Source: Malacoraja senta (lineage: Eukaryota). From it: a stretch of DNA of 64,000 nucleotides. A program made the translations under genes and the position numbers. The DNA lies in NCBI GenBank assembly GCA_038087875.1, contig CM075993.1:9984001-10048000 (forward strand), read 5' to 3'. Shown one piece after another: positions 3,807-51,508 of this stretch; within the stretch, counting starts at the first letter, position 1, and the number at the start of each line of letters is the position of its first letter. Under the pieces are notes generated by a model, which had not been told where the DNA came from, did no database searches, and saw nothing but the letters and a program-made list of their open reading frames with translations.

Positions 3807-23999
<20,193 letters not shown>

Positions 24000-24639
24000 C
24001 TTGGCGCTGCGCTGTTCCAACCCGCAGCTCCTGTTCACCACAGACGCCGGGCTGCGCCAATCACAGGCCCCGGGCCGCGTAAAGCCCGCCTCCCTCGCAG
24101 CACCATAGGACCGGGTCTCTGTCAATCACAGGCTCCAGGCTGCCTAAAGCCCGCCCTCTCCTATCACCAATAGGACCCGGTCTCTGTCAATCATAGGGTC
24201 CAGCCCAATGCCCGCCCTCCCCAGCACCATTGGACCATTCCACTGCCAATCACGTGATCCATGTCTCCAAAGCCCCCCCCCGTATCCCCATAGGGTCAGG
24301 TCAATGTCAATCAAAGGATTCTGCCTTAACCCCGCCCCCAAGTGTGTCGCCATTGGACCAATCATAGGCCCCCCCCCCCAAAGCCCGCCCTCTCCTGTCA
24401 CCAATAGGTCAATCATAGGATCCAGCCCAAAGCCCGCCTCCTCCATCCAATGGATGGGTCGACTGGGATTGTATTCACTGGAATTTACAAGGATGAGACG
24501 GGATCTTATAGAAACATATAACATTCTTAAGGGTTGGACAGGCTGGATGCAGGAAAAATGTTCCCGATGTTGGGGGAGTCCAGAACCAGGGGTCACAGTT
24601 TAAGGGAATTCTCTGCCACAGAAGGCAGTGGAGGCCTAT

Positions 24640-26646
24640 AGGGGGGTTGCACGTAAGGTCACCGGGTCATAGGGCTTGACGCACGGAGCCGCTCAATCTA
24701 TCTGGAGGACATACGTAACTTCCGGTATATGTTATTAATGCTAGAAACGCGTACTTTCCTACCTGTTAAAAACCGCCAAAATGTTGAATTTTTTCCGCTG
24801 TAAAAAATTGTGGAAGTCGGGGTAAGTGTGAGAGACATGTACTAGAATTCCAAACGTGAAGCGAAATGGAGGTAAAGAGAAGCGAGAGCTGAAGGGACAA
24901 CAGCAGCTAAAGTGCTTGGCGGACATTGGCCGTGCAGATATCGGAATTGAAAATATTGGGAATTATCGCGTTTGCTCACTGCATTTCATTAACAGTAAGG
25001 CATTATTTGGGTTTTTTCTTGATTCCTTTGGTATCTAAAAAGTCTCAGAAGTGATCGACATCCACTACAATCCCACCGACTCCCATGGCTATCTGGACTA
25101 CACTTCTTCCCACCCTGCTTCCTGTAAGGACTCCCCCCCCCCCCTCCCCCCCCACTCCCAATTCCTCCGTTTACGCCGCATCTGCTCCCAGGATGAGGCG
25201 TTCCACACAGGGCATCTGAAATGTCCTCATTCTTCAGGGAACGGGGGTTCCCCTCCTCCACCATAGATGAGGCTCGCACCAGGGTCTCTGCCATACCCCG
25301 CAACACTGCTCTCCCCATCCCCCCACTCACAACAAGGGCAGAGTCCCCCTAGTCCTCACCTTTCACCCCACCAGCCGTCACATACAACAAGTGATCCTCC
25401 GTCAGTTTCGCCACCTCCAACGTGACCCCACCACTCGCCACATCTTCCCATCTCCCTTGTCAATTCTTCCCTTCCCTCCCATACCACCCCTCCCCTGGTA
25501 CTTTCCCTTGCAACCGCAAGAGATGCAACACTTGTCCCTTCACCTCCCCCCTCGACTCCATTCAAGGACCCAAGCAGTCGTTCCAGGTGCGACAGAGGTT
25601 CACCTGCATCTCCTCCAACCTCATCTATTGCATCCGCTGCTCTAGATGCCAGCTGATCTACAACGGTGAGACCAAGCGGAGGCTTGGCGATCGTTTCGCC
25701 GAACACCTCCGGTCGGTCCGCAATAACCAACTTGACCTCCCGGTGGCTCAGCACTTCAACTCCCCCTCCCATTCCGTATCTGACCTCTCTATCCTGGGTC
25801 TCCTCCATGGCCACAGCGAGCAACGCCGTAAATTGGAGGAAATGCACCTCATATTCCGCTTGGGCAGTCTACATCCTGGGGGCTTGAACATTGAATTCTC
25901 CAATTCTGCTAGCCCTTGCTGTCCCCTCCCCTTCATCAGCCCTCTGGTTGTCTCCTCCCCTCCCCCAGCCCTCGGGCTCCTCCTCCGCCTTTTTCCTTTT
26001 TTCCTTTCTTCTCCCCACCCCCTATCAGTCTAAAGAAGGGTTTCGGCCCGAAACGTTGCCTATTTCCTTCGCTCCATAGATGCTGCTGCACCCGCTGAGT
26101 TTCTCCAGCATTTTTGTGTACCTTTGATTTTCCAGCATCTGCAGTTCCTTCTTTAACACTCAGAAGTGATCAATCTGGTTGTAAATTTTGCTTCAGAGGC
26201 GTTTTCTTTTTGTATGTAAAAACCCACTTGAGAACCATGGGCGATTTAAAAATTTTACAGCCAGATTTTTCCCTTCTGAAACTTTTTAGATGCCAAAGGA
26301 ATCAAGAAAAAACACAAATAATGCCTTAGTTGATGAAATGCAGTGAGCAAACGGCCAATGTTCGCCAAGCACTGGCTGTGTTTGTCCCTTCAGCTCTCGC
26401 TTCTATCTAACGTCATTTCTCCTCACTTTTTGAATTCTGAAGTAGGCTAAATGTCTCTCACGCTTATCCCGATTTTCATAATTATTTACAGCGCAAAATT
26501 TGACAATTTCGGCGGGTTTTAACGGGCCCGCTACGCTGGAAACAATGATAAGTACTTACCTGCAGTTCATCGCGTGTAATCCATTTGGCGTAGCGTAGCA
26601 ACAGTACGGGTCATGGGTCGTGACCCGACTGCCGTGAAACCTCCCT
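24640..26646. mobile_element. Non-autonomous DNA transposon with AT TSD and two inverted THAP-like arms (ISL2EU/Harbinger-related by inference), inserted into a CR1 fragment
   Basis: Termini AGGGGGGTTGCACG / CGTGAAACCTCCCT; AT duplicated at 24638-24639 and 26647-26648; the CR1 host is contiguous once the element is removed; each arm translates to a decayed THAP domain. Confidence 0.8.
25057..26158 (+). mobile_element. Penelope-like element (end of RT, GIY-YIG, pLTR and tail) nested in the THAP element
   Basis: ORF 25422..26033 contains the GIY-YIG region; perfect 13-bp TSD CTCAGAAGTGATC at 25044-25056 and 26159-26171. Confidence 0.92.
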
Positions 26647-26684
26647 ATTCACTGATGTATTCAAGAGAGAGTTAGATATAGCTC

Positions 26685-30060: not shown

Positions 30061-30847
30061 GTCAGATTTGGCCTTTGATTCCTTGGTCCGCCAAAACCAC
30101 ACGCGAAAACTCAGAGATTTTTTTCCATTTCGCTAGACATTACACTTTTACATACCCTAACACACTCCTTATTAGATTCAGACATTTTTATATACACATT
30201 TTTTAATAAAATAGACATTTTTATGTACACATTTTAAAATAAAATCCATCCCCCCCCCCCCCCCCACTCACTCATTTTGTCGCCTCCTGCTGGCTGCCGC
30301 CCGGCTCTGCTCCAAAAACGCCGACATTTTTATTCTTTCGATGGTGATTTTCGCAGCTGCCGCCCGCCTCTCCACCACTACCCCCCCCCCCCCCTGGGCC
30401 GGCTCTCTCACGCTGGCTCAAGCGCCCGGCTCTCCTCCAAAAACGCCAACATTTTTCTTCATTCGCTGGCGATTTTCGCTGCTGCCGCCCGGCTCTCCTA
30501 CACTACCCCCCCCCCCCCTCCCCGGACCGGCTCTCTCACGCTGGCTCAAGCCAAACATTGGCTCTTCCCCCTCTGCTTTTCGCCGTCCCCTGTCCGAGGA
30601 CGCCGAAAAGCAGCGGCGGAACAACCCATCTTTACCTTCAGCCAGCGTGACAGAGCCGGCGTGTCAACGGCCTGTCGGCCCGCAGCCCCATTGAGGGCGT
30701 ACGCAGCGTCTCGACGGCCGTACGCAGCGTCTCGACGTTGTATGCAGCGTCTTGACGGCGTACGCCGCCTACACCGTCAAGACGCTGCGTACGCCGTCAA
30801 GACGCTGCGTACGACGTCGAGACGCTGCGTACGGCCGTCCAGACGCT

Positions 30848-33660: not shown

Positions 33661-34660
33661 GACGCGCCTGCGAGTTGGGGGCTATGCGTCAGTGGCTAGG
33701 GCGGTTATGCGGTAAAAGGATCTAATTAATAATATTAGTATAATATCAAGGGGGTAGTTAGTGTGGGGGTGGTTAGTGTGTGTGACGCCGCATGCCGCCC
33801 CGCACCCCCCCCCCCCCGCAAACGCGCGTTGGGGGAACAGACCCGACGGGTCTGCACTTGGTCTAGTATACTTTAAAAACTCTGTGTGTGTGTGTGTGTG
33901 TGTGTGGGTGTGTGGGTGTGTTTGTGGGTGTCAGATTTGGCCTTTGATTCTTTGGTCCGCCAAAACCACACGTGAAAACTCTGAGATTTTTTCCATATCG
34001 CAAGACATTACATTTTTACATACTGGCTTCCCTAACACACTCCTTATTAGATTTAGACATTTTTATGTACACATTTTTAAATGAAATCCCCCCCCCCACT
34101 CACTCATTTTGCCGCCTCCTGCTGGCCAGCCACCATAACGGGTGCTGCCGCCCGGCTCTGCTCCAAAACCGGCGACATTTTTATTCTTTCGCTGGCGATT
34201 TTCGCAGCTGCCGCCCGGCTCTCCTCCACTACGCCCTCTTCCCCCCCCCCCCCCCCCGGGCCCGGCTCTCTCACGCTGGCTCAAGCCAAACATCGGCTCT
34301 TCCACCGCTGCTTTTCGCTGTCCTCTATCTGAGAACGCCGAAAAGCAGCGGCTGAACAACCCATCTTTGCCTTCAGCCAGCGTGATAGAGCCGACGCGTC
34401 AACGGCCTGTCGGCCCGCAGCCCCATTGAGGGCGTACGCAGCGTCTCGACGGCCGTACGCAGCGTCTCGACGCCGTAAGCAGCGTCAACACGCTGCATAC
34501 GCCGTCAAGACGCAGCATACGACGTGGAGACGCTGCGTACGGCCGTCCAGACGCTGTCTACGCCATCAAGACGCTGAAGCACGTTCGGGAACCAGACCCC
34601 GGGGTCTGAAGCACGCTCGGGTACCAGACCCAACGGGTCTGCACTTGGTGTAGTTACTAC

Positions 34661-45600: not shown

Positions 45601-48600
45601 CAGGAGCTGCCATTTGGCCCTTCCTAATTTCTCCATTTAATAAGATGGGGAACCTTTCACTTTAGTGCCACTTTCTAGCAACAACCCATATCCCTAGATT
45701 TCCTAAGCAGGGCTTTTATTGCTGGTCTATTAACTTCATGTGTCAATAGTCAGTGTTATTTACTGCATTATCATATTAGATATATCTGTTACAATTCCTC
45801 AGAAGCGCAAGGCAAGGAACAATCAAAATGAGTAGAAACAAAGAATTGCATATGCTGGTTAGTACACAAAAAGGACACAAAGTGCTAGAGTACTCAGTAG
45901 GTCAGGCAGCATTTCTGGAGAACATGGATAGGTGACGTTTCGGGTCGAGACCCTTCTTCAGATTCAAAATGAGTTGATATATTGATATTTAACCTTGGCT
46001 GAGTTCTTAAAGCTGCCATAGCTTAAACAATGGACCAAATAAAACACTGAAGAATCATCATTAAGTTTTACATTTTTGCTATATTATCTATGCAATAAGG
46101 CAGAACTGCAACTCAACTTCAAAAGATGTTTCTTGGTAATCATGTACCTTAGAACACAAGCTTGTGAAGTTATTATACAAATGTGGACTTCCTTCCATAC
46201 CCCCCAAATGTTGAGTGTAGGAAGGAACTGCAAATGCTGGTTTAAAGCAAAGATAGACACAAAATGCTGGAGTAATGCCTGTCCCGCTGAGTTACTCCAG
46301 CGATTTGTGTCCCCCCAAATGTTGATATTGTTTGACTCTTTTTAATTTAGCAATCTTCCATGCAGAAATGTAAGTGCTTTCACTTAATAATCAGATAATT
46401 AATCACTTCATCAAATTCAAATTGGAAATCCTATCCCATTTAAAAATATTTTTGATGAGCATACCTCACTGAGAATCTTAATTTTTAAGACCCTTAGAAC
46501 AGCATGCTCTGAATGTATCATGAAATGTAAGTTAGCTACAGATACTGCTAATCTGAAATAGAAAACTGATGATTAATTGCAACTGTACGGCTATTTGCCT
46601 TACTTCACCAAAAGGTTGTTTGCATCATTTATATTGTGGGCTTTCTTAGTCTTTGCAGCTAACATACCAGAAAGCTGAAGTACTAACACGAGAGTGGGTT
46701 TGTGGACACCTGCCATTTATAGAGAGTAAATGAGAAAAAAAAGCCTGTACATTGGGGAGATTTGAAATAAAAAATACTGGAAACAACAAATCAAGAATAA
46801 CAGAGTTAATGTTTCAGATTGAATACCATTCACCAGAAAGTAGTTTTGAGCACCTATGCAGTGCATGTCATTGTAGTACTGTGTATATGAGAGAGCAAGA
46901 GTTACATAATAGTTATACTTCAGTCTGAAGAAAGGTCCCAACCTGAACGGTGCATATCCATGTCATCCAGCGATGTTGCCTAACCCACTAAGTTACTCCA
47001 GCACTTTATTTTCTATGCAAGAGTTACATTATAAGTATTCCCAATACAATATTTCAACAATAGTATTAATTATTGAAGATGAAGCATCTTAGTTCTTGCG
47101 ATACAAAAAGCAGAGAATACTGGAAATATATCAGACAGCGTCTATGGAGAGAGAAACGGTTAACATTAAGATCACTAAATCCGAAGATGAGAGATTTTGT
47201 GATTTTTTAAATTAAAATTATTTTTAATGATGATGAAGATAGTCACTTTACCGAGATTGGAGATTCTATTGGCTGACAAGTTGAGCACAGTTAGAAGTTT
47301 CAGTGATGCCAAGGGCTTGAGGTTTGAGATATCATTTCTCGACAAGTCCAGCCTCTCCAGATTTACACAGTCTCCAATGCATCCAAGATTGCAGATGTCT
47401 GCAGCAAGCAACAGCACAAATATTCCTTTATATAATTTTCCTTTCTGCAACTACTCTTGTTAAAAAAAGACACGGGTTTATATCATATTTTAAGTTTTAC
47501 TTTCTAAAAATTGATATTTCCAACTATTGTCAAAAGTACAAAGTAACTAGCCTACAGATGAAGTGTTGGATTGCTGATGGCATTTCACCAGGGAGAAGTG
47601 GCTGTGTGATACCAAGAGTTTCTGTCTGAACCGAGGCATTCTAGGGAGCTAGATCACTGTCTAACACTGGCACAATGTGTCAATGGCGTCACTCTAAAAT
47701 AAAATGTGAGTATTTCTCTAGATGCAGGGTGAAAGGAGAAAGCACATAACTCTCAGAATGATTTCAAAATATCAATAGGGTTATTGAACGAGTAAGCTAT
47801 CTGTTACAGTCTCTACTTTATGGAAAGTCGTGAAGATGGGAGGGAAGAATAGAAGCTAAGTGAAGAGAATGTCAAAAGAAAGGGAAAAAAGGGGGGAAGT
47901 ATGGTAAAGAGAGCTGTCTTAAGGTGGGAAACATAATGGACTAAAATACCAGGTCTGCTCATATGGATACTAAAATTGCTTGTTTTTGGTGGGAGAAAGA
48001 ATCTGTTCTGATCTGAACACACTTCATTCATCTGGTCCAGTTATTTAACTATACTTAAAGACAAAATAAATCACATCAATGCAAGTATATGTTGTTTAGA
48101 GAATCAGATGGAGTTATTTTGATCGTTCTTTCAATGCTGTTGCTCAATTAGCTGTGACAAAACAACCAGACTGTTTAGTCTGTTTGGGCCTGGCTATGTG
48201 TGGATTCAGTAACCATGTTTGCTTGTAAAATTGGAGTCACTGCATAACAAACAAGAATCCAATTTTGTAAGAGCTCTTTGGAAAGTTATGAAGACGCGAT
48301 AAGGTAGTAAAATAACAGCAACTCATCAAATGGACTGACAATATAACAGTAATCCAATGAGAGTGATTTTTGCAAGGAACCAAAATGATACGAGACAGTG
48401 AGAGAGTGTGAGAAAGAGAGAGAAAGAGAAAGAGTGAAAGTGTGACAGGGACAGACAGGGACAGCGGGTTGCATTTGTTCAAAAGAAAACACAGGATTTG
48501 ACAGCCAGTGAGTGTCACTACTCACTCATTTTCGTCAGCTTTAAGAACAAAATAGACTCCAGATCAAACTCCCCAGTGATCGATTTGAGCAGCTCGACGG

Positions 48601-48725
48601 TGATCTTGACATCTTCTTCCTCTGAAATAACAAAGGAAACGCAAATGAAGTGATTGCTGAGCGGGGAGGGCGCCTGTCGCCGGGTCCAGCTCACTCTACT
48701 CACCGGCTCTGGCCCTGGGCTCCAT
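36564..48725 (-). CDS. LRRC61: Leucine-rich repeat-containing protein 61, complete 9-exon CDS, 756 nt / 251 aa
   Basis: Exons 48725-48704, 48621-48526, 47398-47252, 44194-44134, 44019-43934, 43133-43068, 39436-39368, 36924-36802 and 36649-36564 join in frame with GT..AG introns: MEPRARAEEEDVKITVELLKSITGEFDLESILFLKL...LERLDLSRNDISNLKPLASLKLLTVLNLSANRISNLDPLYSCENLQNLNLAGNLI...SNPVC...KILDGERFSGRGSDLYRLCKDIDDSLK...WVEDRYWE...RAVK*. The motifs ITxxLLKSxTGEFxLESI, CENLQxLNxAGN and DGERxxGRGS match LRRC61 as I recall it. Confidence 0.93.
36802..36924 (-). CDS. LRRC61: LRRC61 coding exon 8 (EIDSIRPIHVSVSPTKWVEDRYWELKPMQQTQTDKASEQFF)
   Basis: 123 nt, ttttcag acceptor, GTAAGA donor; WVExxYWE motif. 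Confidence 0.88.
39368..39436 (-). CDS. LRRC61: LRRC61 coding exon 7 (GERFSGRGSDLYRLCKDIDDSLK)
   Basis: 69 nt, ttcacag acceptor, GTTTGA donor. Confidence 0.9.
40760..41825 (+). mobile_element. Old, degenerate CR1-like LINE fragment in LRRC61 intron 6
   Basis: Remnant YLDF*KAFD motif and GGCCTACTCCTGCT tail; many stops. Confidence 0.65.
43068..43133 (-). CDS. LRRC61: LRRC61 coding exon 6 (VCMNTSYLNTILDMFPNIKILD, LRR-cap)
   Basis: 66 nt, ttttcag acceptor, GTGAGT donor; LRRcap-like Y..I...P.I..LD. Confidence 0.9.
43500..43910 (-). mobile_element. Ancient Deu-domain SINE (SacSINE1/AmnSINE-like) remnant
   Basis: Minus strand shows ...AAAATCCCATGG...GGCTAATATTCATCCCTCAA...ATTTATCACATTG..TTCATGGGAGCTTG...AAAGCACTTGG, recalled as the DeuSINE core/tail; a similar remnant lies at about 59260-59645 (+). 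Confidence 0.5.
43934..44019 (-). CDS. LRRC61: LRRC61 coding exon 5 (SVDALRSITKLKNLDTIRLKDTVFSFSNP)
   Basis: 86 nt, ctttag acceptor, GTAATT donor. Confidence 0.9.
44134..44194 (-). CDS. LRRC61: LRRC61 coding exon 4 (DPLYSCENLQNLNLAGNLIS)
   Basis: 61 nt, ttccag acceptor, GTTAGT donor. Confidence 0.92.
47252..47398 (-). CDS. LRRC61: LRRC61 coding exon 3 (LRR repeats)
   Basis: 147 nt; NICNLGCIGDCVNLERLDLSRNDISNLKPLASLKLLTVLNLSANRISNL; ctgcag acceptor, GTAAAG donor. Confidence 0.94.
48526..48621 (-). CDS. LRRC61: LRRC61 coding exon 2 (EEEDVKITVELLKSITGEFDLESILFLKLTKM)
   Basis: 96 nt, tttcag acceptor, GTGAGT donor. Confidence 0.93.
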
Positions 48726-49025
48726 CCCGCCGTTGCCCGGGCAACGGCCCGAAGCCCGCGGCCTCCTCTGGCGCGCTGCTTATTTGGAGTCGTTTTGCCC
48801 CTCTAAACCCCCGCTTCCGCTTCCCCCTTGCCCACCCCCGTCTCCGGCTCCTCTAGCTCGGCCGCCACGACGCTCCGGGACTACATTAACCAAGCTCTCC
48901 GCCGATCCGTTCCCGAGCAACCGTTGCCATGATTGCTGCCGTGATCCCAAGCGGTGGGAGCTCGTCGATGCTCGCAGCGAACACAGCGCCAGCGACCAGG
49001 TGTAGAGGCCGCCCGGCTCCCCCAA
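48650..49025 (-). promoter_or_regulatory. CpG-rich LRRC61 promoter with palindromic RFX X-box
   Basis: GC-rich stretch; GTTGCCCGGGCAAC at 48732-48745 lies inside a perfect 20-bp palindrome; further RFX half-sites (GCAAC, GTTGCCATG) near 48916-48930. Confidence 0.7.
48704..48725 (-). CDS. LRRC61: LRRC61 coding exon 1 (MEPRARA)
   Basis: gcgggATGGAG start, GTGAGT donor, 82-nt intron to exon 2; phase 1 matches exon 2. Confidence 0.75.
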
Positions 49026-49157
49026 CACAAAGTAATTTTACAATTTAGTTCAACGTCGTTGCTGTGAAAAACATTCTTTGACAACGTTTAGAAAGGTTGC
49101 TGAGTAAATAACACTGACTCCCTCAGGACTCCAAGGAAAGTTCCAGAAACACTGAAT

Positions 49158-49660
49158 AGGGAGGTTGCACGGCAGTCGAGGCCACGACTGTTGCTACGCT
49201 ACCCCAAGTGGAGTACACGCGATGAACTGCATGTAAACACTCACCATTGTTTCCAGCTTAGCGGGCCCATTAAAACCCGCCGAAATGGTCAATTTTTCCG
49301 CTGTAAATAATTATGGAAATCGGGGTAAGCGTGAGAGACATTTATCCTACTTCAGAATTCCAAAAGTGAGGAGAAATGACGGTAGAGAGAAGTGGCAGCT
49401 GAAGGGACAACGACAGCTAAAGTGCTTGGCGAACATTGGCCGTACAGATATCAAGATTGAAAATATTGGCAATTATCGCATTTGCTCAACTCATTGCATT
49501 TCAGCAACAGTAAGGCATTATTTGTGTTTTTTCTTGATTCCTTTGGCATCTAAATAGTTTCAGAAGTGATAAATCTGGCTGTAAAATTTTAAAATATCAC
49601 ATGGTTCTCAAGTTGGTTTTTACATACAAAAAGAAAACGCCTCTGAAGCAAAATTTATAA
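49158..49660 (+). mobile_element. Single arm of the THAP-bearing AT-TSD element family
   Basis: Begins AT|AGGGAGGTTGCACG and is colinear with the reverse complement of 26180-26646; ORF 49285..49557 MVNFSAVNNYGNRG...RIP...ICSTH is THAP-like. Confidence 0.82.
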
Positions 49661-51508
49661 TTAAAAAAAAAGCGCAAACCATACGTGGGTTTTGAATTAC
49701 ATTTTACTCAGATGCAAGCCAAGGAATGGCATAATTGTTAGCTGTTAATTGGACATAATCAAGCTCAGCAAATTGACAATATCCTATTGAAAGGGGGTGG
49801 GTGTTTAAGCTGTCAGGACATTTTATTATTTGCCAAAATATACATCTCAATAGCATAATGATAAAAAATTTACTTTTCCACACACCACTGGAGATCTTTT
49901 TAATGATAAATTTAGCTTCAGAGTGTGTGTGTGTGTGTGTGTCTGTCTGTGTCAACTTGACAGTTGCTGGCAATTTGCTGAAAAATCCCATGTGGGACAG
50001 GCCCATAACTGCTTCCACCACCACCCTGCCAGCGCGTTCAGGCACCCACCACTCTGCGTTAAACAAACTTGTTCCGCACACTTCATTTAAACCTTCTCAT
50101 CTTAAAGCTCTGCTCATCTTTGACAATTCCACTCCAGTGAAAAAGGTTCAGCCTATGTATCCTATCTATGCCTCTCATAATTTCATATACTGTACTTTGA
50201 CGAACATCCTTTCTGTAATGGGGTGACCAGAACTGCACACAATTCAGGTGGTAAAGTGGACCAGCTGAACAAAAGCTCTCAGAATTTCAGTTGCTGCCTT
50301 ACAGCGCTTACAGCACCAGAGACCCGAGTTCGATCCAGGCTGTGGGTGCTTGTCTGTACGGAGTTTGTAAGTTCTATCCGTGACCGCTTGGGTTTTCTCC
50401 GAGATCTTTGGTTTCCTCCCACACTCCAAAGATGTACAAGTTAGTAGGTTAATTGGGTTGGTATAAGTGTAAATTGTCTCTATTAAGTGTAGGATAATGT
50501 TAATGTGCGGGGATCGCTCGTCGGGCGGATTCAGTGGGCCGAAGGGCCTGATTTGCGCTGTATCTCTAAACTAAACTAAACTAAATTTCTGTTAAAATTA
50601 ATAAAACAACTTCTGGTGCTGGAAATGAGAAATAAAAACAGAAAATGATGGAAACCGTGAACGTCAGGCACCATCATTCCCAGTCTGATTCCCTTCCATA
50701 TCTCTAGACTCCCTTTCCGCTGACTTTCAGTCTGAAGAAGGGTCTCGACCTGAAACGCCACCCATACATTTTCATCAGAGATGCTGCCTGTCCCGCTGAG
50801 TTACTCCAGCATTTTGTGTCTATCTTCGGTGTAAACCAGCATCTGCAGTTCCTTCCTACACAAAGGGTTTTGGATCTGATTGTTGACTATTTCTCTTTCT
50901 CTTCAGAAGCTCCCTGACCTGCTGAGTATTTCCAGCATTTTCTGTTTCTATTTCTTTATTTTTTGTAAATCCCAGATGGTTGAACACAGCAAAATACTTC
51001 ACAGTGAATATATATTTTTTGCCACTGCTGTGATCTAGATGTTGTCCTCCAATCTACACACCATCCTGACTTGTAAATATATCGCTATTCCTTTACTATC
51101 TCTGGGTCGATATCCTCCCATAATGGCATTACAAATGCATCCATACCTCAAAGACTGCAGTAGCTCAAGAAAGTATCTCACCACCACCTTCTGAAGGGTA
51201 ATTAATTTGATGGGCAATTAATTGCTGGTGCAATCTGTGAAGCCCATATTCTTTGAATGAATATTAAAAAACAGTAATTTTGTCCATAGCAAAGTCCCAC
51301 AATCAACTAGGAGACAGGGCCATGTAATATATGGAGCTGGTCTAATATTAGTTTTTGTGATGTGCCATTAATCTTTGGAGGCTGAAACATGCTACAAATC
51401 CAGCATTACACCTGCTGGCAACTATTGTTCATCCATTCAGATTGTAACTTGCAGGAAATATGCAAGACATTTCCAGAATTTTCTTCAAACAGAGCACAGA
51501 TGTAGGGT

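Follow-up and report, generated by a model that had tools for sequence, protein, structure and literature searches.

A non-autonomous ISL2EU-type element in a skate with inverted copies of a THAP first exon behind two dissimilar ends

A single ISL2EU-type insertion, flanked by AT dinucleotides and splitting a LINE 3′ fragment, occupies positions 24640-26646 of the window, the 64,000-nt stretch of Malacoraja senta DNA analysed here. Inside it, two copies of a THAP first exon, each with the start of its intron, face inward behind ends that resemble each other in little more than their terminal inverted repeats (TIRs). Judged by its target site and source transposase, the element is a non-autonomous ISL2EU, as a reading made from the sequence only had proposed: AT is duplicated within an A-AT-T site and the exon matches skate transposases of the THAP-HTH-DDE_Tnp_4 type. 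The layout is unusual and most likely arose as a copying accident. We lean, with some reserve, towards an origin in which the left and right ends of one family each came to carry exon 1 and the start of intron 1, inverted relative to each other.

Boundaries, arms and exons of the element

The TIRs follow the consensus AGGG(G/A)GGTT(G/T)CACG, which occurs at both ends of the element (24640-24653, plus strand; 26633-26646, minus strand) and a third time at 49158. A TIR 14-mer with two mismatches is weak evidence alone, since 12 of 100 shuffles reach three matches, but each of the three matches fronts a homologous 300-bp core. The empty site, GGAGGCC-AATT-CAC, was seen in reads (loose ends behind 24636 in DNA runs X1, X4 and X5) and in a paralogue of the LINE fragment near 17570 in the window; we take this fragment to be CR1-like. 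Because AT is duplicated and the LINE paralogues continue across the site, both element ends were used in one transposition; two chance insertions are ruled out by the target-site duplication (TSD) and the cleanly split target.

Each arm runs from the 14-bp TIR through ~110 bp of its own sequence into a common core of leader, exon and intron start. In gapless comparison the left (L), right (R) and third (T, at 49158) cores are 86% (L-R), 87% (L-T) and 92% (R-T) identical, and the introns of all three ~90%. The sub-terminal segments of R and T are 90% alike; those of L and R (~110 bp) are unalignable beyond the TIR, 305 of 1000 shuffles scoring equally well. The CpG o/e of the element ends is near 1.2. 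The left arm is interrupted, and the hairpin of this copy thereby broken, by an insert with a perfect 13-bp TSD (25044-25056 / 26159-26171), presumably Penelope-like in view of a GIY-YIG match that is weak (E 0.004) and misses the Pfam cut-off. Without it the element measures 892 bp. The sequence-only reading had given ~0.9 kb once the nested element with its 13-bp TSD was removed, the same termini with distinct sub-terminal segments, and a THAP exon present twice in a unit inserted as one; these points were all upheld, the last by the AT duplication, the split LINE and the two inward cores. It had the arms meeting near 26180, and meet they do, though at 26182-26189.

Features of the element and of the third copy, in window coordinates
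Feature	Position	Strand	Remarks
LINE 3′ fragment (target), left half	24454-24637	+	paralogues at 9949, 11662 and 17375; resumes at 26647; reads give the empty form
Left AT target duplication	24638-24639		A-AT-T site; here the flanking A is mutated to T
Left TIR, 14 bp	24640-24653	+	matches right TIR at 12/14
L-type sub-terminal segment	24654-24761	+	TGGAGGACA motif at 24703; unalignable to R-type; putative native 3′ (YqaJ-side) end
Left exon 1 (THAP) copy	24781-24994	+	reading frame shifted; carries Cys5Ser and Trp47Cys; GT donor at 24995
Intron 1 start, left copy	24995-25056	+	resumes at 26172-26189
Penelope-like insert (presumed; GIY-YIG remnant), later arrival	25057-26158	+	1102 bp; paralogues at 2620 and 34829
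Arm-to-arm junction TAAATTTT	26182-26189		microhomology of 4-7 nt
Right-arm intron 1	26190-26328	-	92% to third copy; includes ~60-70 nt missing from left arm
Right THAP exon 1 copy	26329-26507	-	lost: start codon, Pro26 and donor; changed: Cys10Tyr and Trp47Cys; also a stop and a 38-bp deletion
R-type sub-terminal segment	26529-26632	-	motif at position 64; 90% to third copy; putative native 5′ (transposase-side) end
Right TIR	26633-26646	-	followed by AT (26647-48) and T
Third arm, R-type	49158-49667	+	exon at 49285-49509; longer intron; 27-bp inverted copy of inner end at 49897-49923

The arms span transposase residues 1-73 and end at the donor where the skate proteins continue; the rest of the transposase is absent from the 64-kb window. 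A profile built from the arms picked out three skate proteins from 95 candidates. Two of these (P0001 and P0003, at 79% and 66%) are transposases with THAP, HTH_Tnp_4 and DDE_Tnp_4 domains, of which the element copy holds exon 1 only, and the third (P0002) is a gene model joining THAP to cdk2ap1. The left exon copy matched P0001 by tblastn with E 1e-20. Identity to relatives with the THAP-HTH-DDE_Tnp_4 arrangement is 38-43%, and the ESM Atlas returned only generic THAP clusters. The Pfam THAP profile, put forward earlier as a check, gave a divided answer: the third copy fell just under the cut-off (E 1.3e-4, 23.1 bits; cut-off 23.9), the left piece scored E 0.21 and the right piece had no match. 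A THAP profile that includes skate proteins matched all three arms (1.7e-22, 2.3e-13 and 2.3e-7).

Pooling the arms does recover all four C2CH ligands, as had been noted, each arm lacking at least one, but each of the three has Cys in place of the invariant Trp: codon 47 reads TGC, at a site that is W, F or Y in all 167 aligned relatives with a residue there. The last invariant Pro belongs to exon 2, which is absent here, and the full THAP signature is found neither in any arm nor in the three pooled. The exon ends at GT in the left and third copies, in keeping with the splice donor first proposed, but the right arm has lost both donor and start codon. In the accessible text of PMC3479173, Pro, Trp, Phe and Pro are the invariant residues of the THAP domain, and single changes at invariant residues of THAP1 abolish DNA binding. 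As far as can be read from sequence, the exon is dead, no working THAP protein is made and the exons are passengers; to say that the family "amplified the DNA-binding exon" overstates their function, the signature being incomplete in each arm and in the pool. Since Trp47Cys is common to the three arms, one exon, already dead, was probably duplicated. Among 443 difference rows from the reads, none of the 40 rows shown restores the Trp47 codon, which weakly supports a family-wide change. Cys5Ser is common to L and T and Cys10Tyr to R and T, a mixed pattern that suggests conversion between arms.

Several skate proteins deserve mention in their own right. The transposases P0001 and P0006, from two skate species, agree in a set of changes, one of them Lys where the P0003 family has Glu in the RIHVERV motif, and both have isoforms without the THAP exon; they are possibly domesticated, or an old shared copy. 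P0002 joins the skate THAP exon and the exons following it to CDK2AP1 sequence, possibly by exon capture or as an annotation artefact. P0003, P0009 and P0010 are near-identical transposase copies of one skate species, two of them full length and with the DDE motif region intact, and would represent a recently active sister family. P0011, of 1963 aa, consists of six tandem THAP-containing repeats, each resembling a transposase N-terminus.

Copies in sequencing reads and the third copy

Part of the left arm is present in 20 of 22 listed runs from several organisms, and in runs from three organisms each arm type is found repeatedly. In contigs that stem from other copies, the L end is continuous with the exon in X5 (records 17-19), and the R end with the exon in X1 (records 7-8) and X4 (record 16), in line with the earlier claim that the arms are repeated elsewhere. 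Summed depth is similar at the two ends (X1 225k/218k; X4 111k/105k; X5 297k/236k), and the listed contigs have depths of 4-130; the high summed end depth suggests many copies, depth not being a copy number. None of the 24 listed contig pieces bridges the arm-to-arm junction, and X5 record 21 diverges at 26182, as the third copy does. Both arm types are repeated; the arms joined are known from this locus alone. Between 26269 and 26228 summed depth halves in three runs, which would fit a family-wide junction, but the halving is not counted here given that arm depths vary some 70-fold. Poly(A) reads favour the sense strand of the exon and include the intron (X22), and their source may be any copy. 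No match was found to a 28-nt arm pattern in metagenome contigs, to P0003 or alignment A3 in viral contigs, or to alignment A3 in prokaryote genomes.

In the third copy the R-type end is attached to a longer, uninterrupted intron; an L-type end for it was not found within the window. Over 49158-50004 the third arm is followed by 230 bp with a 27-bp inverted repeat at their borders and then by a TG run; next comes a lone GTGGGACAGGCCC terminus that has no partner within the window. The tail of this stretch is a relic second arm or else part of another element. The 27-bp inverted copy, 230 bp on, may be the start of the second arm of a longer master, for which the third copy predicts ~1.25 kb, in which case the junction in the 24640-26646 element would be a later deletion. 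CpG islands adjoin both copies (23650-24450, o/e 0.78; 48600-49050, o/e 0.97; two cases only), and repeated CCAAT and GC boxes lie at 24030-24450.

Identity of the ends and origin of the layout

The ends were compared with those of 80 ISL2EU-like loci from metagenome contigs, relatives in which the transposase and YqaJ genes converge, each starting near one end. Among 64 THAP starts (61 from the loci, 3 from the window), upstream DNA was alignable (local score ≥87) in 21 of 23 non-window pairs with 84-93% exon identity, pairs that come from few families and of which both exceptions involve one locus; seven pairs with exon identity above 93% also had low upstream scores. The window arms scored 109 (R-T), 15 (L-R) and 13 (L-T), the L-R value being at chance level. 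In seven complete relatives the 5′ and 3′ ends have in common the TIR (12-14 of 14) and a TGG(A/T)G(G/T)A(C/A)-type motif, which lies at the same offset (within 1 nt) at both ends in five of the seven (that of L004 was placed by eye). The L and R ends likewise have in common only the TIR (12/14) and the motif, which each carries at position 64. The motif is modestly supported, its score being reached by 28 (L), 9 (T) and 399 (R) of 1000 shuffles, and the comparison of 5′ with 3′ ends gives scores of 21-165 in the relatives and 14 here. From these comparisons we infer that L is the native 3′ end and R the native 5′ end. The R-type end is assigned to the 5′ side because the third copy shows it joined to the longer, uninterrupted intron; neither end holds a YqaJ coding trace by two profiles, so the 3′ identity of L is inferred rather than proven. 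Stretches picked by eye as possible YqaJ N-termini (GLDAR in L, with an ATG at 24728; TRDELQ in R) were not significant with the two profiles and were set aside as chance. One metagenome contig (L042:2784-3930) carries two THAP starts, 93% alike and head to head ~600 bp apart.

The favoured course of events would begin with a derivative that retained the R-type 5′ end, exon 1 and part of intron 1, with the THAP Trp changed to Cys. Excision would have been followed by gap repair, in the course of which fold-back or template switching copied the intron start, the exon and ~20 nt of leader in inverted orientation and placed them beside the native L-type 3′ end, replacing the start of the YqaJ gene. 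Amplification of the product in trans would have followed, driven by a THAP-HTH-DDE transposase that acted at the TIR and at the sub-terminal motif TGGAG(G/T)ACA; the YqaJ partner of this transposase probably took part. The 4-7 nt of microhomology at which the arms meet would mark the fold-back point or a later central deletion, and the Penelope-like element would then have broken the left arm. A single source exon is favoured since Trp47Cys is common to the arms. Several observations count against this course: private changes are in excess in the L core (26 in L and 12 in R, p 0.03; once five near a deletion and the junction are removed, 21 and 12, p 0.16), the fold-back site forms no stable hairpin (z 0.98), the end-versus-end score is low and the motif modest, the mixed distribution of Cys5Ser and Cys10Tyr needs conversion or recurrence, and the junction is spanned by none of the listed contigs.

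The excess of private changes in the L core would instead suit a chimera of two families, which we regard as unlikely, if the strongest of the alternatives: L would have come, as a 5′ end, from a more distant ISL2EU family that has the TIR in common, recombination or conversion from the R-type family having overwritten its exon and homogenised the core. The ATG lies at a similar offset from both termini (142 and 140 nt), relatives at 74-81% exon identity mostly lose upstream alignability, and at least two transposase families, with 73% identity, exist in skates. Yet the L core is no nearer P0003 than R or T are, and Trp47Cys together with the intron identity of L to R and T means that the whole exon and the intron start would have to have been replaced. 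The reading given from the sequence alone, a tail-to-tail fusion of left ends from two sister families, each with its own exon, accounts for two inward exons, cores that differ by 14% and arm types that are both multi-copy. It is now disfavoured, and we hold it improbable, since the upstream segments of L and R are unalignable although sister ends normally align, and a common change at an always-aromatic residue would be unlikely in two independently active families.

Somewhat less probable again is a one-off event, in which this locus, or one parent copy, brought together arms that had belonged to separate or longer elements. The junction is indeed unbridged among the listed records and no L-type end accompanies the third copy within the window, but the matched AT duplication and the cleanly split LINE point to one transposition using both ends, depth is similar at both ends in three runs, and the 27-bp inverted relic at the third copy fits the start of a second arm. 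If an autonomous ISL2EU had THAP as the opening exon of both its convergent genes, a simple internal deletion could have produced the layout. This reading would draw on the fact that in relatives the transposase and YqaJ genes begin near each end; we consider it very improbable, as THAP was found in none of 120 listed YqaJ proteins, YqaJ in none of the 59 proteins of ~230 aa or more scanned among the best 150 THAP relatives (20 of the 59 carry HTH/DDE_Tnp_4), and THAP on both strands in 1 of 80 loci, there head to head.

Relation to known elements

In the accessible sections of PMC4482050, PMC4122938 and PMC9179366, ISL2EU elements (PHIS superfamily) have an AT TSD in an A-AT-T site, short TIRs usually starting with GG and a THAP-HTH-DDE transposase, to which autonomous elements add a YqaJ exonuclease ORF. 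The skate element agrees in TSD, target site and short TIRs and in having such a transposase as the source of its exon; it differs in having no transposase body or YqaJ ORF, the latter as expected of a non-autonomous derivative, and in the inverted duplication of exon 1. Its TIR starts with AG, as do both ends of five of the seven complete relatives. No skate YqaJ was found among the 120 listed matches. The consulted portions of the three accounts, including Table S2 rows 255-272 of PMC4482050, describe no such derivative; no description of the layout was found in the literature searched, though Repbase, Dfam, subscription journals or supplements may hold one. PHIS elements were absent from the sharks surveyed in 2015, in the part of PMC4482050 available, and no report of ISL2EU was found among the papers listed for skates and cartilaginous fish; an ISL2EU family in skates is a small, curation-level addition.

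The nearest counterpart in layout is the 2RT (extended-TIR) form of Galileo in Drosophila mojavensis, non-autonomous copies of the structure TIR1-F1-F1-TIR2, as set out in the available text of PMC3573991. There, too, sequence beside TIR1 is repeated in inverted orientation beside TIR2, the ends are chimeric and the form is amplified as a subfamily. Galileo belongs to the P superfamily, with a 7-bp TSD, long homologous TIRs and a non-coding recruited piece, whereas the skate element has a 2-bp AT TSD, a DDE_Tnp_4 source, ~110 bp of unrelated end outside the repeat and a coding exon within it. By analogy, the skate element works like the extended-TIR copies of Galileo and is no member of that type; recruitment of internal sequence into an inverted repeat can, on this comparison, include a transposase exon and occur in another superfamily.

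A second comparison is with Mu killer of maize, in the accessible part of PMC3440606 a single locus where one 5′ TIR is present twice and silencing has been demonstrated. In both, the 5′ part of a transposase gene is duplicated in inverted orientation and could yield hairpin RNA; in the skate element the ends differ (unalignable beyond 14 bp) and the arms are multi-copy. The insert-free element folds at -451 kcal/mol, against -238 ± 6 for 12 shuffles, and an Rfam search gave two chance-level matches only. It is conceivable, if doubtful, that the two-arm family is a mobile, high-copy killer, amplified by the very transposase whose exon 1 it mirrors, and that transcripts reading through from either side would form a duplex of ~300 bp whose small RNAs silence autonomous ISL2EU; if so, the burst in this vertebrate germ line would have been self-limiting. 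Were intact two-arm copies numerous and small RNAs directed against the transposase, the family would be a mobile silencer resembling Mu killer, with self-limitation testable in a vertebrate. A weaker side option is that, in either insertion orientation, one arm offers host genes an ATG and a splice donor; another skate has the THAP-cdk2ap1 gene model P0002.

Elsewhere in the window, a GC-rich repeat that contains tandem as well as inverted units occurs twice, at 30254-30847 and 34112-34575. Minus-strand frames at 128-863 resemble a transposase remnant, which we take to be of Tc1 type.
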